A stretch of DNA of 37,965 nucleotides from a virus: IMG/VR virus record IMGVR_UViG_3300029876_000020, positions 1 to 37,965 of that record; one strand, written 5' to 3'. The notes under the pieces are model-generated. The model had not been told where the DNA came from, did no database searches, and saw only the letters and a program-made list of their open reading frames with translations. The stretch's first letter is position 1; every line of letters starts with the position of its first letter. Below, piece after piece: positions 4,440 through 37,965 of this stretch. A program made the translations under genes and the position numbers.

Positions 4440-4751
4440 ATTTTCCTCTTTGGATTTCATCAGCGTCAAAATCGCGCTTCTTTCTTCAGGCGTCATCTTT
4501 TTGGCCAATTCTACAAACTCTTTCATATCCTCATTGAGCTCGCCATCCCCGGCGGGCTCTTTTTTTGTGCCCATCAGCTCCTCGACGGTGATGCCGAAAT
4601 AGTCGGCCAATTTTTTAAGAGTATCGTTTCTTGGGACGGCTCCGTTTTTCCATCCTGTGACCGACTTCGAAGTTTTTCCTATTTGCTTCGCAACATCGGT
4701 TTTTGATTTTCCAATTTTTTTGCAGTACATTACATAGTTTTCATAAAACAA
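4425..4751 (-). CDS. CI-like XRE-family repressor
   Basis: HTH GKSKTDVAKQIGKTSKSVTGWKNGAVPRNDTLKKLADYFGITVEEL. Start set to TTG 4751, 6 nt after AGGAGGTG; the upstream ATG of the ORF track contains that RBS. Divergent from the cro-like gene. Confidence 0.8.
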   Translation of the reverse strand: MFYENYVMYCKKIGKSKTDVAKQIGKTSKSVTGWKNGAVPRNDTLKKLADYFGITVEELMGTKKEPAGDGELNEDMKEFVELAKKMTPEERSAILTLMKSKEENSGNG

Positions 4752-4782
4752 AATATCACCTCCTTTTTTGTGCACATCTCCA

Positions 4783-4838
4783 AAACTCTTTGAAACTCTC
4801 TTTTTTCTCTTTACTTGGGAGTTTTAGAGAGTTATAAT
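4783..4838 (+). promoter_or_regulatory. Early rightward promoter (TTTACT-17-TATAAT) with four AAACTC(T) operator-like half sites
   Basis: -35 at 4810-4815 and -10 at 4833-4838. AAACTCT occurs at 4783 and 4793 on the plus strand. GAGTTTT (4819-4825) and AGAGTT (4828-4833) lie on the opposite strand inside the spacer. Confidence 0.55.
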
Positions 4839-4844
4839 AATACC

Positions 4845-4998
4845 GTACTCAAGAGCGAGACCCCATCTCAGACCGCTTGAGTGCTCAAGGGTTTCTCCTA
4901 GAAAGCTGCTTTGCACACATACTGGATTACCCTACCGCGCGGGCTGGCTTCAGCCATGAGCCCGAACCGGCAAAAGGCGCTATCGTACAGCGCTTTTT
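4845..4998 (+). ncRNA. Candidate structured non-coding leader or sRNA between the early promoter and an intrinsic terminator
   Basis: No plausible ORF or RBS. Competing helices: ACTCAAG (4847-4853) / CTTGAGT (4876-4882) / CTCAAG (4884-4889). A further stem: CGGGCT (4940-4945) / AGCCCG (4959-4964). It ends in the terminator at 4976-4998. Confidence 0.3.
4976..4998 (+). terminator. Intrinsic terminator in the early leader
   Basis: GCGCT (4977-4981) / AGCGC (4989-4993), 7-nt loop, then TTTTT. Confidence 0.55.
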
Positions 4999-5002
4999 GC
5001 AG

Positions 5003-5029
5003 CCTTTCCCATTTTGACCGTGGGAAAGG
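5003..5029. promoter_or_regulatory. Perfect 9-bp inverted repeat CCTTTCCCA-N9-TGGGAAAGG
   Basis: Seen directly in the sequence. No T-run on either side, so it is more likely an operator or structural element than a terminator. Confidence 0.4.
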
Positions 5030-5037
5030 AAACAGCG

Positions 5038-5107
5038 TTGCCAAGCCGAAACAGACGTAATTAGATTTCCGCAAGTCTATTATAGTCCGTTTCCGCTCGC
5101 TTGGCAA
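5038..5107. promoter_or_regulatory. Distant 9-bp inverted repeat TTGCCAAGC ... GCTTGGCAA upstream of the cro-like gene
   Basis: Arms at 5038-5046 and 5099-5107. Confidence 0.3.
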
Positions 5108-5158
5108 TGTTTTATTAGCCTTTTTGGGAAACATTTTACACAAGCGAGGTGGAAAACG

Positions 5159-5347
5159 TTGCAGACAAGTTTCAGCGTCACATGGAAGGCGGAGGCCGTC
5201 AAGCAGCTTGCTTTGCGCGGCTGGACATATAACGACCTTGCCCGCGAGACCGGGCTCAGCAGAAGCGTCATCAACCGGTATATGAGCGGCAATTATACGA
5301 ACGATAATCCCCGGTCACTGATCGATCGGGCTTTGGGGATGGGGTGA
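5159..5347 (+). CDS. Cro-like small HTH protein
   Basis: 62 aa. HTH WTYNDLARETGLSRSVINRYMSG. TTG start 6 nt after GAGGTGG. Divergent from the repressor. Confidence 0.7.
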   Translation: MQTSFSVTWKAEAVKQLALRGWTYNDLARETGLSRSVINRYMSGNYTNDNPRSLIDRALGMG

Positions 5348-5351
5348 GCGG

Positions 5352-5528
5352 ATGACAAGGAGCGCAATTTTTGCTTGTATGATGTGCTTTCTGGCGGGCG
5401 GCTGCCTGTGCGCGTTGTTGTTTATCGCCGCAACGAGGCCGCGCCGGGACGTGTTTGCCGGGTGGGCCGCCTATCTGCTCATCGTTTTCATGCTGGCCTA
5501 TAAAATCGGAGGTGCGTTGATCTTATGA
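5352..5528 (+). CDS. 58-aa two-TM membrane protein
   Basis: MTRSAIFACMMCFLAGGCLCALLFIAA...AGWAAYLLIVFMLAYKIGGALIL. ATGA overlap with the next gene. Below the ORF-track size cutoff. Confidence 0.45.
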   Translation: MTRSAIFACMMCFLAGGCLCALLFIAATRPRRDVFAGWAAYLLIVFMLAYKIGGALIL

Positions 5529-5737
5529 CCTGTTACATATTTGCAGACCTGATGGTCATGTTTGGCCGAGACGCCTACCACGCCCAGATGACCGAGACGC
5601 TGCTGCTGGTGTTCCTGCTGACCCCGCTGGTGATCGGCGGGCCGTATCTGCTGGCCCAGTGGGATAAGTTCAAACGGGCAGACAACGCCCGGCGGCGTGC
5701 CGCTTTCCGGCGGCGCATGGAAAGGACGGCGCGGTGA
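5525..5737 (+). CDS. Small membrane protein (70 aa) with a basic tail
   Basis: One hydrophobic segment (LLLVFLLTPLVIGGPYLLA) and an R-rich C-terminus. Translationally coupled on both sides. Confidence 0.55.
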   Translation: MTCYIFADLMVMFGRDAYHAQMTETLLLVFLLTPLVIGGPYLLAQWDKFKRADNARRRAAFRRRMERTAR

Positions 5738-6087
5738 TGGCACAAACAACGACGGCGAGATACACCCGCACCTGTGTGACCTGCGGGGCAGAGATGCACA
5801 ATGTAGGCCCAACGCGGCAATACTGCCCGGCGTGCCTCGGCAAGCGTGCGGCAGAGGCGATGGTTTTGAAGAAAAAGCGCCTTTACGAACAGAAAATGAG
5901 GGAGAAGATGGAGCGGGAGGCGCTGGAAGAAAAGGCCCGCAAGGCCTTTCCGCACCCGAAGAAACCCACTCAAGACAACAGCATCGGCGCGGTATGTGCC
6001 CGCGCCATCGCGGCCGGCCGCACCTACGGCCAGCAAGTCGAATTTGAACGCAGACAGAAGGAGTTGAAAGACCGTGGCGAAATCTAA
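5737..6087 (+). CDS. Zn-ribbon protein with a charged coiled-coil region
   Basis: CVTCG...CPAC motif followed by a K/E-rich helix. The start overlaps the previous stop. Confidence 0.55.
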   Translation: MAQTTTARYTRTCVTCGAEMHNVGPTRQYCPACLGKRAAEAMVLKKKRLYEQKMREKMEREALEEKARKAFPHPKKPTQDNSIGAVCARAIAAGRTYGQQVEFERRQKELKDRGEI

Positions 6088-7602: not shown

Positions 7603-8141
7603 TCGGCAAGCTTCCGGTCGTCTATGACCCCACAAAGCAAAAGATCGTTGTGGAAAACTCGGCGGAATTTGTTAAAACGCAGATACGCCAGAAATTAGAC
7701 GACCTCGCCCACGGCTCCCCGCTGCGGCTGACCATTACCGTGGAGCGGCAGCGGAAAAAGCGCAGTCTGGAGCAGAACCGCATGATGTGGGCGCTGCTCA
7801 CCATCATGGCCGACCACTACAACGCCGGAAAGGCGGGCGGCACGACCCCGGAGGCCTGTTATATCGAGATGCTGGAAGAATACGGCCTCGAATATGACTT
7901 TTTGGAGCTTCCGGTGGCCGCCGTTCCCATCCTGCGCAATGCTTACAGACTTGTGCATATTGTGGAGCTGCTGGACAATGACCGCTGCACTGTCAAGGCG
8001 TCGATGGGCTCCAGCAGCTTTACCAGCGCCCAGATGTCGGCCTTTATTGACGGCATTTTTGACCGTCTGGCCGAAATGGGCGTCAACGATCCGAATGTAA
8101 CACAATATTGGCAGGAATGGCAGGAGGTGCCGAGGAAATGA
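7584..8141 (+). CDS. ninB: NinB/Orf-family recombination mediator
   Basis: ERQRKKRSLEQNRMMWALLTIMAD matches lambda NinB ERNRSLDQNRKLWACLGDV. Confidence 0.7.
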   Translation: MARSDVIGKLPVVYDPTKQKIVVENSAEFVKTQIRQKLDDLAHGSPLRLTITVERQRKKRSLEQNRMMWALLTIMADHYNAGKAGGTTPEACYIEMLEEYGLEYDFLELPVAAVPILRNAYRLVHIVELLDNDRCTVKASMGSSSFTSAQMSAFIDGIFDRLAEMGVNDPNVTQYWQEWQEVPRK

Positions 8142-8536
8142 CTCAAAAACGCCTAATTGATGCAGATGACCTGAAAGACACGTTACTTTTGGAGGGAAAT
8201 TTGGGCTATATCCACACTTTGCAAGATGTGGAACGGTGTATCGACGCAACTCCCACAGTACTGCATGAGTGCATTTGCCGGAATTGGCACTCAGCCAACG
8301 AAATTCCCCCTTTGCACCATGTTGTTGAGGACGGTGATGATGACGAAGAGCCTCTTGAATACGAGTCGAGCGAAAAGCTTCTTGTCTACACGGAAAATGG
8401 GCGAATCGTTGCAAATGTCCGGTATGTGAAATCTGAAAACTTTGTCGGCTGGGATGATTGGAGCGGCGGCCTGTTCAACACGAAGGTCACCCACTGGATG
8501 CCACAGCCGAAGCCACCGATGATGGAGGCGGAATAA
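8138..8536 (+). CDS. DUF551-like phage protein
   Basis: The C-terminal VTHWMPQPKPP resembles the DUF551 THWMPLPxPP ending. ATGA overlap with ninB. RBS GGAGGTG. Confidence 0.45.
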   Translation: MTQKRLIDADDLKDTLLLEGNLGYIHTLQDVERCIDATPTVLHECICRNWHSANEIPPLHHVVEDGDDDEEPLEYESSEKLLVYTENGRIVANVRYVKSENFVGWDDWSGGLFNTKVTHWMPQPKPPMMEAE

Positions 8537-15033: not shown

Positions 15034-15179
15034 GCTGCCATAGCTTAGTGGGCTAGAGCGCTTTGCATCTGGTACATGCAAGGTAACATTGGCGATACAC
15101 ACCACCCATGGCTCTGCGTTTAGCCAGCGCAGAAGTTAATGCGGTGTGGGCGTTGGTTCAAATCCAACTGGCAGCACCA
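15034..15179 (+). tRNA. tRNA-like gene: Thr(GGU)-type anticodon loop, 8-bp anticodon stem, ~67-nt insertion at the variable-loop position, encoded CCA
   Basis: Acceptor stem GCTGCCA/TGGCAGC is perfect. D-arm GCTT-AGTGGGCTA-GAGC. Anticodon loop CTGGTAC (U33, A37). T-arm GTTGG-TTCAAAT-CCAAC. Ends in ACCA. Total length is 146 nt rather than ~76. Confidence 0.55.
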
Positions 15180-15276: not shown

Positions 15277-15278
15277 AT

Positions 15279-15351
15279 GCATCCGTAGCTCAGTCGGCAG
15301 AGCAGCGGGCTTTTAATCCGTGGGCCGCGAGTTCGAATCTCGCCGGACGCA
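15279..15351 (+). tRNA. tRNA-Lys (UUU)
   Basis: 73-nt cloverleaf. D-arm GCTC-AGTCGGCA-GAGC. Anticodon loop CTTTTAA. T-arm GCGAG-TTCGAAT-CTCGC. One A-C mismatch at 3:70. No encoded CCA. Confidence 0.85.
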
Positions 15352-15365
15352 TTGAGGTGACAGCA

Positions 15366-29848: not shown

Positions 29849-31097
29849 TTTTGACAACCCCGGCTTGCCGCAGCACCTCGAAGCCATGGAGGGCGACGCG
29901 CAGAGTCGGTTCTTTCAGGCGACGCTGTACCGCTCCGGCGCGGCCTACACGCCCCCGGCTGATGCGGTCTACAGCATCATGTACCGGGGTTTCGGCGAGC
30001 AGAATCAGGGCTGGTATGACACCATTGAGGACGACACAGGCAAGCGCGACGCTTGCGTTGCGTCCGGCAATGTCGTGACCTGCGAGATCGACCGCCACGC
30101 ATTGATCGTGCCGGGCCATGTCAGCATCGTGCTGTGCATCACCAATGACCGGGGCTATATGCTCAAGAGCCGCCCCATCCTGACCGACGCCCGGAATGAC
30201 AACTATAACGACACCGTAGAGGTCGAAAGCTTTTTCCAAATCACGGGCAAAACCTCGGCGTGGTGGTTGCAAAGCAAGAAGGACGTCCAAGATCTTGTGG
30301 ACAAGGCAACGACCGAGGCCACAAAAGCCGAAAACAGCGCGAATGCCTCTGCCGGTTCCGCTGCCGCAGCCGCCCGGAGCGAGAACGCCGCGGCGGGAAG
30401 TGCCACGGCAGCAGCCAACTCGGCCAGCGCGGCGGAAAAGTCCAAAACGGCGGCGGCGACGTCGGAGATCAACGCGGCCAGATACGAGGAAGCCGCCAAA
30501 CAAGTGGTGACGCAGAACGCCAAAGGCTACGGCGGCGGATACTCTCGCACCTTTACTTTGACGGCCCCGCAGGCCGGGTGGACGGCGCTGGAAACGCCCA
30601 TCGGCATTTACCGCTATTATGCCGACGTGGCCCTCGCGGACTGCACCGCCAAGTGGAACGCTTTTGCGGCTGTTTTGCCGGAGAGCGCTATGGCAGCTTT
30701 CGTGGCGCGGGTGGCGAATATCATTGAGACGAAGGACGGCAGCGTGCGTCTGTATGCGGTGAACGTTCCGGACGGCGATGTGAAGTTTACTCTCTCAGTG
30801 TTTGCGGTAGGTTCCCGCACCTACAGCCTGACGGTACCTGTCAATGGGTGGGTACAGGCAGAAAACACTGTGGGGGTCAACCAGTGGCAATGCGATTTGA
30901 CGCTGGAAGACTCTTCCGTTGAAAAAGTACCAATGGGTATGGCCGCACTGGAAAACACCACCGAAGCGCTCTCCACCCCGGGCCTGAGCGCAACGATGGA
31001 GACGTTTGACGGGTACATCCGAGTTTATGCAAAGAAAAGGCCAGCGGTAGACATCAACATTGTGGTGATTCTGCTGGCAAAGAATGAGGTGAACTGA
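29829..31097 (+). CDS. BppU-like baseplate upper protein / tail fibre with an Ala/Ser-rich coiled coil
   Basis: N-terminal IDFDNPGLPQHLEAMEGDAQSRFFQATLY, then ATTEATKAENSANASAGSAAAAARSENAAAGSATAAANSASAAEKSK. Confidence 0.6.
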   Translation: MQQIKIDFDNPGLPQHLEAMEGDAQSRFFQATLYRSGAAYTPPADAVYSIMYRGFGEQNQGWYDTIEDDTGKRDACVASGNVVTCEIDRHALIVPGHVSIVLCITNDRGYMLKSRPILTDARNDNYNDTVEVESFFQITGKTSAWWLQSKKDVQDLVDKATTEATKAENSANASAGSAAAAARSENAAAGSATAAANSASAAEKSKTAAATSEINAARYEEAAKQVVTQNAKGYGGGYSRTFTLTAPQAGWTALETPIGIYRYYADVALADCTAKWNAFAAVLPESAMAAFVARVANIIETKDGSVRLYAVNVPDGDVKFTLSVFAVGSRTYSLTVPVNGWVQAENTVGVNQWQCDLTLEDSSVEKVPMGMAALENTTEALSTPGLSATMETFDGYIRVYAKKRPAVDINIVVILLAKNEVN

Positions 31098-31643
31098 ATG
31101 GCAATTGGTTCTATGACCACCAACAGCACGGTGGATATAATCGACAAGACCCTGACCATTGAGAACGCACCGGCTGACGCAAAGGCTACCGGTGACGCGC
31201 TGGCTGGGAAGCTTGGTCTGCACGACACCGCAGACAACTCTGCCAAATGGGGTGATTATGAGCGGCGTTTTAATGAGGTAACTGCTTCCACGCTTGTGCT
31301 CGTAGAAACCGCAGGAAAGTACGTTGATTTGCGTCCGGCAGATAGCATCGGATTAACAGTCGTCGTCGCCTCCGGCGACAAATACATCCGCTTTGCGGAT
31401 GGCACGCAGATTTGCTGGGAAATCGGCTGCTACGTTGACGGGTATATCACGGAAACAAATAGACGTGTTAATTTCCCGGTGGCATTTGCAAGCATCCCGG
31501 CAGTTGTTGCTGCATCTAACGCAAATATTGGTAATACGACGGTTATTGTTGGCTGGGAGTCAACCACAGGCTTTTCGATTGGTGCAGCAGACAAAAATGC
31601 AAGAGGCAATACAAGCTGGCTCGCCATTGGCCGCTGGAAGTAA
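31098..31643 (+). CDS. Tail fibre / receptor-binding protein
   Basis: APADAKATGDALAGK motif, which is common in fibres. Position. Confidence 0.55.
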   Translation: MAIGSMTTNSTVDIIDKTLTIENAPADAKATGDALAGKLGLHDTADNSAKWGDYERRFNEVTASTLVLVETAGKYVDLRPADSIGLTVVVASGDKYIRFADGTQICWEIGCYVDGYITETNRRVNFPVAFASIPAVVAASNANIGNTTVIVGWESTTGFSIGAADKNARGNTSWLAIGRWK

Positions 31644-31655
31644 GGAGGAAGACAC

Positions 31656-31931
31656 ATGGAAATTACTTTAGGCTACACCCTCGCCAAGCCCGTAGAAACG
31701 CAGGAGCAGTGCACCGCTTACGCTGAGATGGCACAGGCCGTGAACGAGCACAATGCCGCCTGTGGGGTGGGCGACACGCTGTGGGTCATTGAGGATAAGG
31801 CCGACTGCTACGAGGTGGCAGAGGGCGGCACGGTGCCGGAGCCGGAACCGGCAAGCACCCTACCCACCACAGAGGAGCGGCTGGCAGCATTGGAAGCCGG
31901 TCTCATTGAGCTGGCCGCACAGGAGGTATGA
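31656..31931 (+). CDS. Hypothetical protein (91 aa)
   Basis: ORF with AAGGAGGAAG upstream. Confidence 0.55.
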   Translation: MEITLGYTLAKPVETQEQCTAYAEMAQAVNEHNAACGVGDTLWVIEDKADCYEVAEGGTVPEPEPASTLPTTEERLAALEAGLIELAAQEV

Positions 31932-31932
31932 C

Positions 31933-32064
31933 ATGGTACAATTTTACGTGACACAGATCAAGCTCCACCGATTTGACGGCACCTTCACCATCGACGACGT
32001 GCCGACCCGCTGGCGGGCCCGCGTACAGGCCGAGCTGGACAAGGAGGCGCAGGAAAATGGCTGA
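31933..32064 (+). CDS. XkdX-like small protein (43 aa)
   Basis: ATG after GGAGGT. Lies just before the endolysin. Sequence ...FTIDDVPTRWRARVQAEL. Confidence 0.4.
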   Translation: MVQFYVTQIKLHRFDGTFTIDDVPTRWRARVQAELDKEAQENG

Positions 32065-32746
32065 TAAGACCATCTTAGACGTCTCCCGTTGGCAGGGCCG
32101 CATCGACTGGGACGCGGTGAAGCGCAGCGTCAAAATTGACGGCGTGATGCTTAAAGCCGTGTCCACCAACCGCAAGCTGAGCAAGCGCAAGGATGGGTTG
32201 TACATTGACCCGACATTTGAGCGCAACTATGCCGAATGCAAGCGCGTTGGTCTGCCGGTTGGCGTATACTACTACACCTACGCCACCGATAAAGAGATGG
32301 CAGACGCAGAGCTTGCCTTGCTCAAGACTGCCTTGACCGGAAAGACCTTTGAGCTGCCCATCAGCGTGGACGTGGAGGACAACAAAATCAAGAAGCTGTC
32401 CACACAGGCGCTGACCGACCTTGCCGCCTATGCGCTTGCTACGGTGGAGCGCTGGGGCTTTTATGCTCTGCTGTATGTCGGGCTAAATTTTGCGCAGACG
32501 GAGTTGTACATGGGTGGCGCGGCGCTGCGCAAGTACGATGTATGGCTGGCAAGATATCCCAGAGACAAGAGCAAGACCAAACCGGAGGACAAGCCCAAAA
32601 CAGACTTTTCCTTTGGGATGTGGCAGTACACCAGCACCGCCAGCGTGCCGGGCGTGAGCGGCTCGGTAGACCTGAGCCATGCGTATAAGGACTACGCCGC
32701 CATTATTGCGAAAAAGGGGCTTGACCGGCTCCGGGAGGGCGCATGA
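32057..32746 (+). CDS. GH25 muramidase endolysin
   Basis: ILDVSRWQGRIDWDAVK...GVYYYTYA...DVWLARY signature. Confidence 0.88.
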   Translation: MADKTILDVSRWQGRIDWDAVKRSVKIDGVMLKAVSTNRKLSKRKDGLYIDPTFERNYAECKRVGLPVGVYYYTYATDKEMADAELALLKTALTGKTFELPISVDVEDNKIKKLSTQALTDLAAYALATVERWGFYALLYVGLNFAQTELYMGGAALRKYDVWLARYPRDKSKTKPEDKPKTDFSFGMWQYTSTASVPGVSGSVDLSHAYKDYAAIIAKKGLDRLREGA

Positions 32747-33132
32747 GCGAAAAAGAAGCTTTACTGTGGGTTCTGGGCGTTCTTGGCAGCCTGTGCGCCG
32801 CTGCCATCACGGTCGACAAGGTGCTGGACATCATCCATAAGTACATCAAAAAGGCAAAAGCCCCTGACGATGCGCAGAACAAACGCATTGACGCCATTGA
32901 AAAGCGACTGGCTGCGGTAGAAACCGTTTCCACACAGCACGCCGCGGCCCTTAGACGCGACATGACGCGATTTGACGGCATCGATGAAGAAATGCGTCTC
33001 GTCCTTGTTGGCGTGCAGAACCTTCTGGATGCGCAACTGTCCGGCAACAACCGCGAAGGTATGCAAAAAAGCAAATCCGATATCAACAACTACCTGCTGA
33101 AAGGAGTAACAAATCATGGAAGCAATCCTTAA
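32743..33132 (+). CDS. N-terminally membrane-anchored coiled-coil protein (lysis-associated)
   Basis: One TM segment (LLWVLGVLGSLCAAAITV) followed by a coiled coil. ATGA overlap with the endolysin. Confidence 0.5.
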   Translation: MSEKEALLWVLGVLGSLCAAAITVDKVLDIIHKYIKKAKAPDDAQNKRIDAIEKRLAAVETVSTQHAAALRRDMTRFDGIDEEMRLVLVGVQNLLDAQLSGNNREGMQKSKSDINNYLLKGVTNHGSNP

Positions 33133-33457
33133 AACCATTCTCACACCCCTGCCCGCATGGCTGGCACTTGCGCTCATCGTTGTGGGCGCTGTTTCGCTTG
33201 TGCTGGGGCTTATCCGTCTGGGCTACGGCGCGGCGGTCAAAGGCACTGTGCTCGATCTCATTGCAAGGGCGGAGCACGAAATTCAGGGCACGAAGCGCGG
33301 CGCAGAACGCAAGGCGTGGTGCGTCAAGATGCTGCGTCACTATCTGGATAACAGCAAGTGGGGCAAGCTGGTCTCGTGGGCAATCACCGAAGAGACCATG
33401 AGCAAGGTGATTCAGTTTTTCTTTGACCGGGCAAGGGAAGCCCTGCAAAAGCAGTAA
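33116..33457 (+). CDS. Holin (LL-H-family-like)
   Basis: N-terminal TM segment (LPAWLALALIVVGAVSLVLGLI) followed by ...GTKRGAERKAWCV.... Confidence 0.5.
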   Translation: MEAILKTILTPLPAWLALALIVVGAVSLVLGLIRLGYGAAVKGTVLDLIARAEHEIQGTKRGAERKAWCVKMLRHYLDNSKWGKLVSWAITEETMSKVIQFFFDRAREALQKQ

Positions 33458-33467
33458 GGAGGATATC

Positions 33468-33746
33468 ATGGCAAGCACTACATACGAGCATTTTGTTGAC
33501 ACTAACAAAATGTACGCCGCACAAGAGCAATTTCGTGACATCACGAAAATGGTCTGCGCACGTTTTCGTGGACTCACGAAAACATGCCATTCTGCCGACG
33601 TTGTCAAAATGGTGACGTTTTGTCACCGGTTTGCCGTCATTGGCAATATGGTGCGCAACGCCGGAGAGCTGCCGCAGCCTTTCTGGCTCGGTGCTGCCCG
33701 TGGCGGCGGCTCGTATAGTCTTTCCGCCAGCGTTGCAAGGGCTTAA
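33468..33746 (+). CDS. Questionable ORF (92 aa) spanning the palindrome cluster
   Basis: Excellent RBS (AAGGAGGA). However, the 'protein' repeats xxxKM in step with the DNA palindromes, and the ORF overlaps the next ORF by 116 nt. Confidence 0.3.
   Translation: MASTTYEHFVDTNKMYAAQEQFRDITKMVCARFRGLTKTCHSADVVKMVTFCHRFAVIGNMVRNAGELPQPFWLGAARGGGSYSLSASVARA
33489..33646. repeat. Cluster of five inverted repeats
   Basis: CATTTTGTT-N6-AACAAAATG (33489-33512); TTTCGTGA-ca-TCACGAAA (33531-33548); GTTTTCGTG-gact-CACGAAAAC (33562-33583); GGTGAC-gtttt-GTCACC (33611-33627); TTGCC-N6-GGCAA (33631-33646). Confidence 0.9.
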
Positions 33747-33924
33747 TGCAGAACAGATAAAAGCTGTGATAAAACGTGCGCCGCTTGGGAGGTATGACCG
33801 GAAAATCGCCCGGTTGCGGTACGTTGATCAGCTATGCCAAGTTGATATTGCAGCGCGTGTGCCGTATTGTCGGACATCAATCGGCAATAGACTGAAAATT
33901 ATTAATAAAATGCTGAATGTGTGA
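33631..33924 (+). CDS. Small sigma-region-4/LuxR-like HTH protein (start uncertain)
   Basis: C-terminal LNAEQIKAVIKR...RKIARLRYVDQLCQVDIAARVPYCRTSIGNRLKIINKML. There is no convincing RBS for any candidate start. Confidence 0.45.
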   Translation: MPSLAIWCATPESCRSLSGSVLPVAAARIVFPPALQGLNAEQIKAVIKRAPLGRYDRKIARLRYVDQLCQVDIAARVPYCRTSIGNRLKIINKMLNV

Positions 33925-33994
33925 AAAAATCCCCTGCTTTGCCGAAGCCCTGCGTTCCACGCGAGGTACTTTGTAAGCGAAGCGGGGGATTTTT
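33924..33994. terminator. Bidirectional terminator between convergent genes
   Basis: AAAAATCCCC (33925-33934) / GGGGATTTTT (33985-33994), with an inner GCTT..AAGC extension. Confidence 0.6.
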
Positions 33995-33998
33995 AGTT

Positions 33999-34322
33999 TT
34001 ACAGAAGATTATAATGCTCAGCCAGCAAAAAGCGGACGTATGCCGGGCAGTCCCGGCTTCCGGCGCACCAGTTCTGCACCGTGCGCAGCGGAATGCCCGC
34101 CCGCTTTGCAAAGGCGGTCTGTGACAGGCCAGTACGATCTACCAGTTCCCGCATGGACAGGTGCGCCAGATCCCAGATGACGGACAGCCGCTCCTTCTCG
34201 GCGTCCAGATCAATGCAGTCGGAAGCATCGTCCGGGACGCTAAGGGTGATGCTGTTGAGGAACGCTGCCATGGATGCTTCCGGGTCGGCAGCCATATTAA
34301 AAAGTTCAGCACTGGTATACAT
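33999..34322 (-). CDS. HTH DNA-binding protein (aca-like position)
   Basis: LSMRELVDRTGLSQTAFAKRAGIPLRTVQNWCAGSRDCPAYV. Start at ATG 34322 after AAAGGAAG. Confidence 0.7.
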   Translation of the reverse strand: MYTSAELFNMAADPEASMAAFLNSITLSVPDDASDCIDLDAEKERLSVIWDLAHLSMRELVDRTGLSQTAFAKRAGIPLRTVQNWCAGSRDCPAYVRFLLAEHYNLL

Positions 34323-34374
34323 AGTTGACTTCCTTTCTTTCGTGTGATAGGATAATCGTACACCTCCATGTGAG

Positions 34375-34386
34375 GTGTCTTTCACT
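34375..34386 (-). repeat. 12-mer AGTGAAAGACAC (minus strand) in the leader of the HTH gene
   Basis: Identical 12-mer at 35152-35163. Confidence 0.85.
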
Positions 34387-34431
34387 AAGGTCCCCTAGTC
34401 GGTGTTCGTGCGCCGTCTGGGGGACTTTTCT

Positions 34432-34716
34432 TTACTCCATATCTTCCAGAGCTTCAAGATACTTCGGGTAAAGGTCTTCCACGACGGCCTGTCTCTCAAC
34501 GTCGTCCATACTGCCGTTCATGAGTGCCTCGCCCTCTTCATCGGAGAGTTCGATGCTGGTAGTGACCATCAGGTCGCGAGCGTCCAGATGAGAGGTCTTG
34601 ACGTCGCCATCATCGGTGAGGTGCGCGTAGATCATCCAAACGCCGTTGTCGTACTCAATTTCGGTACCGGTGGCCATGACCTTAGTGGCAAACTCGTCAG
34701 CAGTTAACTTTTTCAT
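34432..34716 (-). CDS. Small, highly acidic protein (94 aa)
   Basis: About a quarter of residues are D/E by my count, and few are basic. RBS AGAGGTGA. Confidence 0.65.
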   Translation of the reverse strand: MKKLTADEFATKVMATGTEIEYDNGVWMIYAHLTDDGDVKTSHLDARDLMVTTSIELSDEEGEALMNGSMDDVERQAVVEDLYPKYLEALEDME

Positions 34717-34732
34717 TTTGGTCACCTCTTTC

Positions 34733-35125
34733 TTACAAAGCAAATGCTTTCGTCAGGGATTCATTGACGGATGCAGCAGACTTGGACAGCCCGGTGTGGA
34801 TAGTCCAATCAGCCAGATCGAGATAAGCACCGTACAGAGCGTTGAGAACCCGGCCACACTCGGCGTTGGAGATCTCCTCACCGTTGAGATTTGCCGAGCG
34901 GATGTTGCCGGAGTTATAGGTGCAATAGGTCAGGCCGATGATGGACTTCCCGGCTTCGTTCAGGTACAGGCGAGACTTGCTGCCCCTTTCCCAAACACGA
35001 GCACCAAGCACCATGGCTTTTGCAATTCGCCATGCTTTCTTCAGAGCTTCGCTCATGGTGATCTTCGCGGCCTTGCGGATCTTCCAAGCGGTGTTCATGA
35101 TGTCGTGCAGGTTGAAGTTTTTCAT
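34733..35125 (-). CDS. Hypothetical protein (130 aa)
   Basis: RBS GGAGGA 7 nt upstream. First gene behind the strong promoter. Confidence 0.65.
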   Translation of the reverse strand: MKNFNLHDIMNTAWKIRKAAKITMSEALKKAWRIAKAMVLGARVWERGSKSRLYLNEAGKSIIGLTYCTYNSGNIRSANLNGEEISNAECGRVLNALYGAYLDLADWTIHTGLSKSAASVNESLTKAFAL

Positions 35126-35151
35126 TTTTCGTTCCTCCGTTGTGGTTTCAT

Positions 35152-35163
35152 GTGTCTTTCACT
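35152..35163 (-). repeat. 12-mer AGTGAAAGACAC at the predicted transcription start of the minus-strand operon
   Basis: Identical to 34375-34386. It begins ~7 nt downstream of the -10. Confidence 0.85.
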
Positions 35164-35169
35164 GTCTAT

Positions 35170-35198
35170 AGTATACACCCACTGGGTGCAAAAGTCAA
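35170..35198 (-). promoter_or_regulatory. Near-consensus promoter TTGACT-17-TATACT with the palindrome CACCC-AGT-GGGTG in the spacer
   Basis: The reverse complement of 35170-35198 reads TTGACTTTTGCACCCAGTGGGTGTATACT. Confidence 0.7.
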
Positions 35199-35240
35199 GC
35201 GTTTTTCAAAAATTTTATACTCATTGAACGTATTTTTTTA

Positions 35241-35282
35241 CCCTCACGCTGCCCTTTGCAGTGTGAGGGCTTTTCTTTTTTG
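35241..35282 (+). terminator. Intrinsic terminator in the leader of the plus-strand cargo operon
   Basis: CCCTCACGCTG / CAGTGTGAGGG 11-bp stem (one G-U pair), 7-nt loop, then CTTTTCTTTTTT. Confidence 0.7.
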
Positions 35283-35357
35283 TCCTTCGTTGTACCTTCG
35301 TTGTCTCTCGCTTTCCGGGAAAGAGATAAAATCATCCCAGAAGAAAGGGGGATCTAT

Positions 35358-35804
35358 ATGGGATATCCTTATGAAGGATGGCGGCCCGGCCCGTACGGGT
35401 CGCAGCCTATGAGTAGCTACGGGCAGAACCAGTACATGCCGCAGATGCAGGGACAGACAGGCCAGATGGCCGCACAAAACCCGTTTACCATGGTGCCAAC
35501 TATCGCAGACGTGGACAAGGTCATGGTACAGCCCGGCGAAACGCGCTGGATTATGGTGCAAAACGAGCCTGTCATGGCTGTCAAAAAGGCAGACACGATG
35601 GGCTACGCATCCGGCGAGTACTACCGCCTGACAAAGATCGACCCGGCGGCGATGCAGACACCGGCAGAGACGCAGTATCTAACCTCTGCGCAAGCAGATC
35701 AGAAGATACAGGCTGCCGTAAAGGCCGAGGTAGAGCGTGTGATGGCGCAGTATCAGACTGCCCCGGCGGCTCCTGCAAGGCCCGCAAGGGCAAAGGAGGG
35801 TTAA
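35358..35804 (+). CDS. Hypothetical protein with a Q/M/P/G/Y-rich N-terminus
   Basis: MGYPYEGWRPGPYGSQPMSSYGQNQYMPQMQGQTGQMAAQNPF... RBS AAAGGGGGA. Confidence 0.6.
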   Translation: MGYPYEGWRPGPYGSQPMSSYGQNQYMPQMQGQTGQMAAQNPFTMVPTIADVDKVMVQPGETRWIMVQNEPVMAVKKADTMGYASGEYYRLTKIDPAAMQTPAETQYLTSAQADQKIQAAVKAEVERVMAQYQTAPAAPARPARAKEG

Positions 35805-35807
35805 GGT

Positions 35808-36035
35808 ATGGCAAATCCTTTGATGCGCTTCCTAGGCGGCACCTCCGGCTCATCTATGCCCGGCCCGATGGGCAATGTGATGCAGATTTTGCAGCAGTTC
35901 CAGCAGTTCCGGGCCTCTTTTAAGGGCGACCCGAAGCAACAGGTGGAGATGCTGCGCAAGTCCGGCAAAATGTCAGATGAGCAGTACCACCAGCTAGAAG
36001 CGATGGCGAAACAGATCATGCCCTTCCTCAAGTAG
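35808..36035 (+). CDS. Hypothetical protein (75 aa)
   Basis: ORF with AAGGAGGG upstream. Confidence 0.6.
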   Translation: MANPLMRFLGGTSGSSMPGPMGNVMQILQQFQQFRASFKGDPKQQVEMLRKSGKMSDEQYHQLEAMAKQIMPFLK

Positions 36036-36041
36036 TCGGAG

Positions 36042-36057
36042 AGTTGTGCGCACAACT
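36042..36057. promoter_or_regulatory. Perfect 16-bp palindrome AGTTGTGCGCACAACT
   Basis: Self-complementary over all 16 positions. It lies in an intergenic gap inside the cargo operon. Confidence 0.5.
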
Positions 36058-36095
36058 TGAAATATATTCACAATTCGCAAGAAAGGAAATCAACT

Positions 36096-36737
36096 ATGGA
36101 TAACATGTCTTTGAGCGATATCGCTGCCGTGACCCGTGGCAACGATAACGACGGCTGGGGACAGGGCGGCGCGTGGTGGATCATCATCCTCTTCCTGTTC
36201 GTCTTTATGGGCGGCGGTGGCCTGTGGGGCAACCGTCAGGGCGAGTATGGTCAGTATGCCACTGCGGCAAGCCAGCAGGAGATCCTCTATGGCCAGCAGT
36301 TCGGCCAGATCAACGACCGCCTGACCAACATCGGCAACGGTATCTGTAATCTCGGCTATGAGATGCAGGGCAACATCGGCCAGCTCGGCAAGGAAGTTGC
36401 TCTGGCACAGGCTGGTACCAACACCACCATCCTCCAGACCGGTAACAACATCCAGAGCCAGCTCGCACAGTGCTGCTGCGACAACCGTCTGGCAACGGCC
36501 AATCTGTCCGCTCAGATGGACAAGCAGACCTGCGCGATCAACTCCAACATTGACGCGAAGTTTGCCGAGCTGCAGAAGCAGCAGTATGAGCAGACCATCG
36601 CGGCCCAGAATCAGCGGATCAGCCAGCTGGAACTGGCCTCCCAGATGTACGGCGTTGTGAAGTACCCAAACGGCTACTCCTACAATGCGGGTCCGAGCCC
36701 CTTCTGCGGCTGCAATAACGGCTGCGGAAACATCTAA
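36096..36737 (+). CDS. Membrane-anchored coiled-coil protein with a Cys-rich C-terminus
   Basis: TM segment GAWWIIILFLFVFMGGGGLW, Q/N-rich helical repeats, a CCC motif, and the ending FCGCNNGCGNI. Confidence 0.6.
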   Translation: MDNMSLSDIAAVTRGNDNDGWGQGGAWWIIILFLFVFMGGGGLWGNRQGEYGQYATAASQQEILYGQQFGQINDRLTNIGNGICNLGYEMQGNIGQLGKEVALAQAGTNTTILQTGNNIQSQLAQCCCDNRLATANLSAQMDKQTCAINSNIDAKFAELQKQQYEQTIAAQNQRISQLELASQMYGVVKYPNGYSYNAGPSPFCGCNNGCGNI

Positions 36738-36763
36738 CACATACGCCCTTTAGGCGAGGATTG

Positions 36764-36796
36764 GCGGGGCGGCAAAAGCTGCTCCGCTTATTTTTT
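36764..36796 (+). terminator. Intrinsic terminator immediately upstream of the RBS of the 36812 gene
   Basis: GCGGGGCGGC-aaaa-GCTGCTCCGC (10 bp, two G-U pairs), then TTATTTTTT. Confidence 0.65.
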
Positions 36797-36811
36797 AAGG
36801 AGGATATGACT

Positions 36812-37210
36812 ATGTCTAGGTCTGCTATCTATACCGCCAACACCACCCCCACCGCGCTCGCGGTCGGCAACATCATCCCCGTGGGAACCACGGTGCGCCG
36901 TTTTGGCCAGTGCATCCGGCAGGACGGCAACACCATCACGCTGGCCGGGCCCGGCTACTATCTGGTCAACGCCTCGGCCACCGTCGCACCCACCGCCGCC
37001 GGTACGGTCTCCGTTACCGGCCAGAAGGACGGCGTCGCTGTGATCGGTGCCACTGCGGCCGCCACTACGACCGTAGCAGCCGAATCGGCAAACCTGTCTC
37101 TCGATTTTATCGTCCGCAATGTCGGCTGCGGCAGTTCCATCCTGTCCTTTGCGCTGGGCGGCGCAGAATCTACGGTCTCCAATCTGGCCGTGACCGTCAC
37201 CAAGCTGTGA
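36812..37210 (+). CDS. Small all-beta protein, possibly a BclA-C-terminal/TNF-like jelly roll
   Basis: ...GPGYYLVNASATVAPTAAGTVSVTGQKDGVAVIGA...ANLSLDFIV... pattern. RBS AAGGAGGA. The fold assignment is a guess. Confidence 0.55.
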   Translation: MSRSAIYTANTTPTALAVGNIIPVGTTVRRFGQCIRQDGNTITLAGPGYYLVNASATVAPTAAGTVSVTGQKDGVAVIGATAAATTTVAAESANLSLDFIVRNVGCGSSILSFALGGAESTVSNLAVTVTKL

Positions 37211-37223
37211 GGAGGTAACTGCC

Positions 37224-37733
37224 ATGTGTTACGATAATCTACGTGCACGCATGTGCAAGGAGCTTCATGATATCGAGGAGCGGGGGACGTTCTGCCGCTG
37301 TGATCTCGACGACGCCCACAAGCTGATTGAAAGCATCTGCGGCCTCGACGCCATGTCTGCCCCCGCTGAAGAGCACCACAAGGCCGACAAGCACGAAACC
37401 GCCCACGTTGAGCACGCCGCCCATCCGGCACACCTCACCCTAGAGGACGCGAAGCGCTGGACGTCCAAAATGCAAAACGCCGACGGCACCACCGGCTCCC
37501 ACTGGACGCCGGATCAGACCAGCGCCGTGATGTCTCAGCGCGGCCTCTCCTACGACAAGGCGGATTTCTACGCCGCCATGAATATGATGTTTTCCGATTA
37601 CTGCATGGTTGCCAAGTCCTACGGCATCGATACCGCGAACTTTTACGCAGACCTCGCCGCCGCCTTTTTGACGGACAAGGACGCCGTGCCCGGTAAGATC
37701 GTGAAGTACTGGGAGACTATCGCGAGCGGCTGA
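37224..37733 (+). CDS. Hypothetical protein with a His-rich linker
   Basis: ...EEHHKADKHETAHVEHAAHPAH... then WTSKMQNADGTTGSHWTPDQT. RBS GGAGG. Confidence 0.6.
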   Translation: MCYDNLRARMCKELHDIEERGTFCRCDLDDAHKLIESICGLDAMSAPAEEHHKADKHETAHVEHAAHPAHLTLEDAKRWTSKMQNADGTTGSHWTPDQTSAVMSQRGLSYDKADFYAAMNMMFSDYCMVAKSYGIDTANFYADLAAAFLTDKDAVPGKIVKYWETIASG

Positions 37734-37740
37734 AGTGCTC

Positions 37741-37762
37741 TGACTACTTTTTGACTACTTTT
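37741..37762 (+). repeat. TGACTACTTTTTGACTACTTTT; partner of 131..152. Candidate integrase arm-type sites.
   Basis: 21/22 identical to 131-152. The two copies flank the ~190-bp attP-like core region in the circular map. Confidence 0.45.
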
Positions 37763-37787
37763 CGCACGTCAAAAGCTGAGACTATGC

Positions 37788-37807
37788 GTTAGTATCTGTT
37801 AGTATCT
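37788..37807 (+). repeat. Tandem GTTAGTATCT x2
   Basis: Seen directly in the sequence, inside the attP-like region. Confidence 0.85.
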
Positions 37808-37965
37808 GCAATTCAAAATCAACACAAAAAAGCGCATGACTGCTAAAAATCCAGCAATCATGCGCTTTTTCCTATAATTGCGCCAGCAGGAGTCGAACCT
37901 TTTGCGCATATCGTCTTTTCGTTATTTTATTGTTTTTGACTACTTCTTGACTACTTTTATTTATC
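37807..37965. repeat. Direct terminal repeat, copy 2 (identical to 1..159)
   Basis: Base-for-base identity. Confidence 0.95.

Follow-up and report, generated by a model that had tools for sequence, protein, structure and literature searches.

Fixed regulator, exchangeable neighbours: an acr-aca-like operon in a temperate phage of a putative Faecalibacterium host

What do three small genes under one promoter do in a prophage, and what keeps them under control? The question is raised by the IMG/VR virus record IMGVR_UViG_3300029876_000020, whose 37,965 nucleotides (nt) are called the window here: near its right end three co-oriented genes, named A, B and C, share one promoter and one terminator within the prophage. 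An original prediction, made from the letters alone, had read this unit as an operon of anti-CRISPR/anti-CRISPR-associated (acr-aca), that is anti-defence, type. The promoter, the palindrome, the three open reading frames (ORFs) and the bidirectional terminator that it described are all present in place, and the proposed architecture is borne out by four lines of comparison, namely an operator conserved across different cargo, covariation of operator and regulator residues, a link of the regulator to Aca10, and a variable gene slot. As far as sequence comparison can carry it, the acr-aca reading has strong support where regulator and architecture are concerned, and is unproven for A and B. We consider it rather probable that a temperate phage of Faecalibacterium has here an anti-defence operon of acr-aca type, anti-defence cargo included; that the cargo is anti-CRISPR specifically we put somewhat below even chances. 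The parts of the locus are as follows.

34733-35125, minus strand: gene A, 130 aa, isoelectric point (pI) 9.7, candidate anti-defence protein
34432-34716, minus strand: gene B, 94 aa, pI 4.08, candidate anti-defence protein
33999-34322, minus strand: gene C, 107 aa, Aca10-like, predicted autorepressor
35170-35198, minus strand: operon promoter, with the -35 element TTGACT at 35193-35198, a 17-bp spacer and the -10 element TATACT at 35170-35175
35172-35192: operator O1, TTTGCACCCAGTGGGTGTATA, occupying the whole -35/-10 spacer and reaching into the -10 element
35176-35188: core palindrome of O1, CACCCAGTGGGTG, which abuts the -10 element
35218-35230: operator O2, CGTTCAATGAGTA, a second, degenerate copy whose centre lies 42 bp, or four helical turns, upstream of that of O1
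35126-35169, minus strand: 5' leader, ATAGACAGTGAAAGACAC ... GGAGGA ribosome-binding site (RBS), conserved across cargo families
34387-34428, minus strand: terminator-like GC-rich hairpin directly 3' of the B stop codon
34323-34386, minus strand: structured leader of C, with the leader repeat at 34375-34386, a hairpin ACACCUC/GAGGUGU at 34360-34378 and a third stem that pairs with the RBS of C
33922-33994: intrinsic, bidirectional terminator that closes the operon on its 3' side, with arms at 33925-33942 and 33977-33994

Genes were called by a codon log-odds model trained on the structural genes of the phage, in which A, B and C score 49, 49 and 29, respectively. Calling by longest ORF was dropped because antisense ORFs mask true genes; one of them, the long ORF 34646-35227, is outscored by A, B and C in the same model. 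Two of the products are of the kind foreseen, a strongly acidic B with 24 D+E (25.5%) versus 7 K+R, and a helix-turn-helix (HTH) protein C, in which ~55 aa of a family-specific N-terminal domain are followed by an HTH of XRE type (residues 58-91, nt about 34050-34151; Pfam HTH_3, E 6e-5).

The composition of related loci sets the regulator gene apart from its neighbours. We compared 80 IMG/VR loci encoding C at 75-100% identity, the first three of which (L001-L003) belong to essentially the same phage as the window. They show 25 operon architectures with about 24 co-oriented, mostly unrelated small families, around a C gene that stays fixed, and wherever enough flanking sequence was available C usually has the lysis cassette on one side and the same divergent cargo block on the other (51 of 64 loci). 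The guilt-by-association search proposed with the original prediction does therefore find a conserved HTH gene beside a variable small-gene slot in the 80 loci. The breadth of the three families differs accordingly, with more than 619 clusters at 90% identity for C, 31 for B and 11 for A. The main arrangements are these.

fam9 (115 aa)-C: 28 loci
fam11 (70 aa)-C-fam10: 17 loci
A-B-C: 4 loci, one of them the window
B-C with or without fam40: several loci
fam63-C; fam65-C-fam10; fam11-fam41-C; fam54-B-C; fam68-fam54-B-C: few loci each

The slot proteins are 57-130 aa long, have neither enzymatic nor membrane domains, and are mostly acidic, with pI 4.1 for fam11, 24, 40, 54 and 65 and pI 4.9-5.1 for fam41, 55 and 68. 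On the other side of the regulator, fam10, a zinc-ribbon protein with an AP2/HNH-like part, follows C in 28 loci; it is the one among the neighbouring families with a match to a known family in Pfam, PHROGs, NCBIfam, PADLOC or PDB sequences.

Two variations on this layout were seen. In ~12 loci (among L004-L007, L009-L012 and L015-L019) C is immediately preceded, after fam9 or the promoter, by a canonical XRE HTH ORF that is AT-rich (MATAKEIGIGIKNARL...) and that may be fused to it in frame, giving a two-HTH protein of ~198 aa. The related phage L096 has, beyond C, an additional run of small acidic genes (4529-5887; fam53, a 90-aa fam54-like protein of pI 4.1 and a fam68-like one), which suggests that some relatives hold a larger anti-defence island.

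The many partners of C bear directly on a second interpretation, a type II toxin-antitoxin system with the toxin first (HigBA/MqsRA), in which C would be the antitoxin, or else basic A the toxin and acidic B the antitoxin with C as their regulator. Such systems share with our locus the order of partner and then HTH gene, an autoregulated promoter with a palindromic operator, and the HTH subclass: that of C is YiaG/HigA/MqsA-like within XRE, with weak PDB matches to HigA-2 and HipB at E 0.6-1 and a Pfam Xre-like-HTH match at E 0.0056. Moreover, wherever A (pI 9.7) is present, B (pI 4.1) comes next, with no exception. However, one C, N-terminal domain included, stands beside eight or more unrelated partners, or beside none at all (L012, L015), and this is incompatible with specific neutralisation of a toxin, so the one-to-one pairing of HigBA and MqsRA fails here. 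The partners are mostly acidic and not toxin-like, and B, which 13 related loci have, lacks A beside it in 8 of them, is also found with other neighbours, and moves independently of A. No toxin family was recognised in Pfam, NCBIfam or PADLOC and no toxin fold was detected, as the original prediction had already noted when it kept this alternative in reserve; we now regard it as very improbable.

If the neighbours change and C does not, what does C act on? The match of the operon promoter to consensus is 10/12, joint best within 31000-37965, and it is weak evidence when taken alone, because promoter-like sites are rather frequent in this interval (8 observed versus 4.2 +/- 2.0 expected). The palindrome in its spacer is a different matter. 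CACCCAGTGGGTG has a single exact copy in the whole window, at 35176-35188, and it is kept with symmetric variants in ~70 related loci; this conservation, together with the symmetric changes between classes and the covariation with the HTH protein described below, places it above chance. The second copy, O2, follows the class of O1, and the spacing between them is exactly 42 bp in 67 of 74 loci. Six different first-gene families have in common the entire layout of O2, an AT-rich stretch, TTGAC(T/A), an O1-bearing spacer, TATA(A/C/T)T, the leader AGACAGTGAAAGACAC and the RBS. In the window, a 12-mer of the leader (35152-35163) recurs exactly at 34375-34386, upstream of C.

Covariation was analysed with operator classes in 73 loci and residue columns among 41 distinct C sequences. 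Three pairings emerge.

Operator CAC(C/T)CA.TGGGTG with C motif TVQNWC(A/V)G(S/T)R: 60 loci
Operator (A)CGC(T/A)CA.TGAGCG(T) with C motif TVQGWCLGER: 6 loci
Operator CACGCA.(T/C)GCGTG with C motif TVQDWCGEKR: 7 loci

All three operator classes keep the dyad symmetry, and class and protein match without exception in the 73 loci, although two of the 60 QNW loci have a hybrid right arm, TGAGCG or TGAGTG (CCC..GAG, against C[CT]C..GGG in the other 58). Full prediction of the class is given by columns 84 and 89 of C only (normalised mutual information 1.0), followed by column 87 (0.87) and the rest at <=0.6. Since each class comprises several cargo families, the operator and the regulator stay together while the genes between them are shuffled. 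Related pairs are met well beyond the comparison set: the promoter of Streptococcus phage Javan242 carries TTGACAATATACGCAATGCGTGTTATAAT and its C-like protein the motif QDW, gut phage MT835558 has TTGACATACCACGCAACGCGTGGTAATAT with EDW, Lachnospiraceae and Ruminococcus metagenome-assembled genomes have CACCTA(A/T)TGGGTG with QNW, and the promoter of gut phage L145 carries TTGACATAATACGCAATGCGTGCTATAAT. The sites of Javan242, MT835558 and L145 conform to ACGCAA(T/C)GCGT, the operator that goes with D. Going by these pairs, the operator/residue code extends to distant lineages. The N-terminal domain of C is also present, in diverged form, in Javan242, MT835558 and L081, and the gene order is familiar as well: in Javan242 and MT835558 a lysin gene is followed by the promoter, small and often acidic genes, a C-like HTH gene and then an AP2-like gene or the integrase, and in L145 a 60-aa acidic protein precedes the C-like gene.

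We therefore take O1 as the predicted binding site of a C dimer, and, with the operator-residue pairing as our guide, C is very probably an operator-binding autorepressor of this promoter. Could it instead be a general transcription factor of the phage, a late or lysis-lysogeny regulator, with the small neighbours as unrelated passengers? HTH proteins are abundant in phages, and there is a one-mismatch copy of the palindrome, CATCCAGTGGGTG, at 8488-8500. However, this copy lies inside a coding gene (8138-8536) and is probably due to chance (by our own estimate roughly 0.04 expected), the sole exact operator is in the promoter of C itself, a separate CI-like repressor is encoded beside the integrase, and the pairing of operator and regulator persists despite the shuffling of cargo. 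A general regulatory role is, in our view, the least credible of the explanations that we weighed.

The autorepressor reading gains a precedent from Aca10. A profile of the C family searched against 177,635 PDB sequences has Aca10 (7XI5) as its second match (E 1.2e-3, ~40 residues), after the uncharacterised protein Atu1735. Between the two HTH domains we count ~40% identity over roughly 35 residues, and four of the five DNA-contacting residues are conserved. Those published for Aca10 are Q22, R34, Q37, Q38 and R44 (PMC9410881), and they correspond to C as follows.

Aca10 Q22: Q68 of C, invariant in the C family
Aca10 R34: R80 of C, invariant in the C family
Aca10 Q37: Q83 of C, invariant in the C family
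Aca10 Q38: N84 of C, the covarying position
Aca10 R44: R90 of C, nearly invariant in the C family

The minimal operator of Aca10 is 19 bp long, ATACGCTCATTGAGCGTAT, and lies between the -35 and -10 elements of acrIC7-acrIC6-aca10 (PMC9410881). This site is found 19/19, as the reverse complement and at the same promoter position, in three loci of the QGW class, L020, L032 and L034, which have C proteins of 77-80% identity and promoters upstream of fam63/fam65. The occurrence of the exact Aca10 site in promoters of Faecalibacterium phages points, by sequence, to an unusually strong conservation of DNA specificity across phyla. The exact 19-mer is not in the promoter of the window, where the operator TTGCACCCAGTGGGTGTAT is of the QNW class and agrees with it at 12/19 positions by our own count; O1 is placed as is the IR2 of Aca10.

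The kind of system is one already known. Like our operon, acrIC7-acrIC6-aca10 of Pseudomonas citronellolis (PMC9410881, PMC7913775) has two small genes and a terminal XRE-type HTH gene behind a strong promoter whose spacer is filled by a perfect-dyad operator overlapping the -10 element; acidic cargo is frequent in both, and both have the contacts Q22/R34/Q37/R44, and the QGW sister loci have the identical 19-bp operator. In contrast to it, the window has an operator of another specificity class (CACCCA.TGGGTG), a second operator 42 bp upstream and an attenuator-like structured gap before the regulator, its A and B are unrelated to AcrIC6 and AcrIC7, and its putative host is a Gram-positive gut anaerobe. 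A position beside the lysis cassette at the prophage end, and an HTH autoregulator linked to variable small genes, are found likewise in the acrIIA1 locus of Listeria prophages and the AcrIB2 locus of a C. difficile phage, to whose AcrIIA1 and AcrIB2 proteins we detected no sequence relation. Listeria AcrIIA1 is an HTH protein that is an anti-CRISPR itself. AP2 genes have been reported as frequent in acr loci in the AcrIB2 preprint (10.1101/2023.05.22.541795), and here the same association is seen with fam10 and with the neighbour of the C-like gene in Javan242.

How would repressor and cargo be made from one promoter in unequal amounts? The gap between B and C is 110 nt long and folds at -35.3 kcal/mol (z = -4.5). 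Its part next to B, the hairpin at 34387-34428, would act as a leaky attenuator that sets the regulator apart from the cargo genes, and analogous hairpins of differing sequence, with short U-tracts, are found at the same place in fam11-C, fam63-C, fam65-C and L037 loci; the structure of the C leader is likewise kept in fam24-C and fam11-C loci. Where C follows fam9 or fam41, the gap upstream of it is merely 18 nt, and C must therefore be co-transcribed there from the operator-bearing promoter. For the window, co-transcription of B and C with partial attenuation would yield more cargo protein than repressor and a later shut-off.

The operon ends in a hairpin that folds at -31 kcal/mol (z = -4.7) and, since an A-run and a T-run flank its arms, is able to terminate transcription both ways. 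It is also a full-length match to Rfam RF03075 (33928-33991, plus strand; 68.8 bits versus a threshold of 40.2), the DUF3800-VIII RNA, which is without an assigned function (PMC5737381). No DUF3800 gene was seen near this match. Of 13 related Faecalibacterium-phage loci that were scanned, 9 close their C operon with this motif, which here looks like a conserved terminator.

Put together, the locus could work as follows. On entry of the phage DNA into a cell free of the regulator, the near-consensus sigma-70 promoter would fire and give an early burst of A and of acidic B as candidate inhibitors of host defence. Read-through of the leaky hairpin 3' of B would then supply the Aca10-like C, a dimer of which would sit on O1 in the -35/-10 spacer, keep RNA polymerase out and so shut the operon down; C would probably also occupy the weaker O2, on the same face of the helix 42 bp upstream. 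The conserved promoter, leader and C gene would thereby frame a slot through which related phages exchange cargo.

What, then, are the cargo proteins themselves? A consists of an N-terminal helical pair, weakly Phage_Gp111/phrog_28198-like, and a core (~34-110) with the consensus GAxRWxKGxxxRLYLN...GLxxxxYxSGNISSAxLxGExISNS, which belongs to a large unannotated superfamily of 567 clusters at E <= 1e-3. A has no match in Pfam, NCBIfam, PADLOC or PDB. A match to a pentapeptide-repeat DNA mimic (6omx, E 0.003) could not be reproduced with the family profile and was rejected as spurious. In some proteins a C-terminal HTH (P0176, P0201) or a long acidic tail is attached to the core domain. B exists in a short form of 94 aa and a long form of 121 aa, and a tblastn search with it against GenBank phages returned nothing, even at E 10. 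Structure prediction had been proposed as a test for DNA mimicry. The AlphaFold2 (AF2) model of B is confident (predicted local distance difference test, pLDDT, 86; predicted template-modelling score, pTM, 0.78), with an alpha/beta fold, and a likeness to a solved fold was not found; that of A is poor (pLDDT 61), and its search against BFVD returned uncharacterised proteins only. That B might act as a DNA mimic would follow from its charge only.

Several observations weigh against the model. Searches of Pfam, PHROGs, NCBIfam, PADLOC and PDB sequences linked no slot protein to any Acr or other anti-defence protein that has been validated. A is basic, its large superfamily is of unassigned role, and members of this superfamily stand beside a C-family gene in just 5 of 63 viral loci. 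The B model has no PDB fold match (best E 0.55), though the structure of AcrIC5 was solved in 2022. In BFVD, B does match a 179-aa 'AcrIC5-like domain-containing protein' (E 0.023, probability 1.00, TMq 0.66), which we treat as a lead only, as the alignment may run through another part of the target; the AcrIC5-like domain of Pfam is in no B-family member. As for the regulator, the similarity to Aca10 is short, at ~40 residues, and statistically modest (E 0.19 with the single C sequence), C is longer (107 aa versus about 65 for the single-domain Aca10), and the residues G49 and E52 of the Aca10 alpha4 dimer interface give way in C to Y95 and F98. Because length and dimer-interface residues differ and C has its extra N-terminal domain of ~55 aa, we call it Aca10-like rather than an Aca10 orthologue. 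Finally, O2 is degenerate in the window, where only the promoter-proximal half-site TGAGTA is well kept.

A rival reading is a prophage-expressed moron or defence cassette, whose small proteins would serve the lysogen (superinfection exclusion or a minimal anti-phage system) at a level set by C. In line with this, the unit lies between the lysis genes and the end of the prophage and has a promoter of its own and terminators at its flanks, all of them classic for morons, and no slot family has an assigned function. Variable hotspots at such a position in other temperate phages also hold defence genes. However, PADLOC gave no match save one weak HTH-only match for C, and proteins of 57-130 aa, mostly very acidic and devoid of enzymatic and membrane domains, have the typical look of small acidic inhibitors. 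Through its regulator and operator the locus is tied to an Aca family with validated anti-CRISPRs under its control, and promoter occlusion by the operator suits shut-off more than steady lysogenic expression. We hold the cassette to be improbable, if less so than the toxin-antitoxin system.

The host context fits the anti-defence reading. The phage is tentatively placed in the putative host genus Faecalibacterium, the closest named C homologue among the more than 619 clusters being from F. prausnitzii; no named phage was matched by megablast with the structural genes, and a scan of genome contigs returned distant HTH relatives only. Clades of F. prausnitzii carry type I-C or I-E CRISPR-Cas, by clade (PMC12716062), while the Aca10-linked AcrIC6 and AcrIC7 target I-C and I-E, and AcrIC proteins are mostly acidic (PMC7913775). 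Since the host genus carries both, I-C and I-E are the first candidate targets of A and B.

New with respect to the known systems are an Aca10-like clade with an N-terminal extension in Firmicutes phages, a specificity code of three classes, dual operators at 42 bp, a structured gap before the regulator, and ~ten candidate anti-defence families, as yet uncharacterised, from phages of a bacterium that is a keystone commensal of the gut. A further-reaching view, which we find doubtful when taken as a whole, would see in the slot a natural library of ~ten novel anti-defence families of Faecalibacterium and related Clostridia, with the first inhibitors of their I-C/I-E systems among them and a B fold unseen in solved structures; the 84/89 code would be simple and portable, one of its three classes being the Pseudomonas Aca10 site, and the N-terminal domain and the RBS-sequestering gap would bring in a level of timing or sensing that has not been reported for Aca proteins. 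We found no paper on anti-CRISPR or anti-defence proteins of Faecalibacterium phages. Faecalibacterium is among the most abundant human gut commensals and is hard to manipulate genetically, and the locus offers a tractable entry point, with the regulator as bait, a defined operator and ~ten small cargo families; inhibitors found in this way could aid genetic and phage work in gut Clostridia. In addition, a clean natural experiment on how HTH repressors change their DNA specificity is offered by the covariation and by the recurrence, letter for letter, of the Aca10 operator in a Gram-positive gut phage.

The surroundings of the operon are those of a temperate siphovirus-like prophage, whose relevant features are listed here.

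151-1290: integrase
1274-1891: CI-like repressor HTH, adjoining the integrase
About 16.4-18.1 kb: TerL
32057-32746, plus strand: endolysin
Ending at 33457, plus strand: holin-like genes
35409-37733, plus strand: divergent cargo block of five genes

With endolysin and holin-like genes on the plus strand up to 33457 and the cargo block on the plus strand from 35409, the operon does lie between lysis genes and cargo and opposite to the late genes, as had been described; it is the sole minus-strand unit of the right arm and is divergent from the cargo block. The products of this block have 131, 75, 213, 134 and 169 aa. The 213-aa protein (phrog_16490) has a transmembrane segment, is Q-rich and has a Cys-rich C-terminus, and the 169-aa protein is DUF7841 (E 3e-26). 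In related phages the block is replaced, at the same place, by fam 1/4/17, fam 1/4/6/5 or fam 1/18/19.

Between promoter/O2 and the cargo block, at 35241-35269 on the plus strand, there is a GC-rich hairpin of 12 bp followed by a T-run, the 3' half of which is kept in related loci; it may shield the cargo genes from antisense transcription. On the other side of the operon a small ORF (33745-33924, plus strand), similar to sigma-70 region 4/transcriptional regulators (phrog_36, E 7e-4), is convergent with C and ends at the terminator that they share. It is without a good start codon here and its coding score is low; homologues of it (fam12, 55 aa) occur in 25 related loci. Far from the operon, the phage encodes a tRNA-Lys (anticodon TTT) at 15278-15352 on the plus strand; ARAGORN did not confirm a further Rfam tRNA match at 15034-15176.

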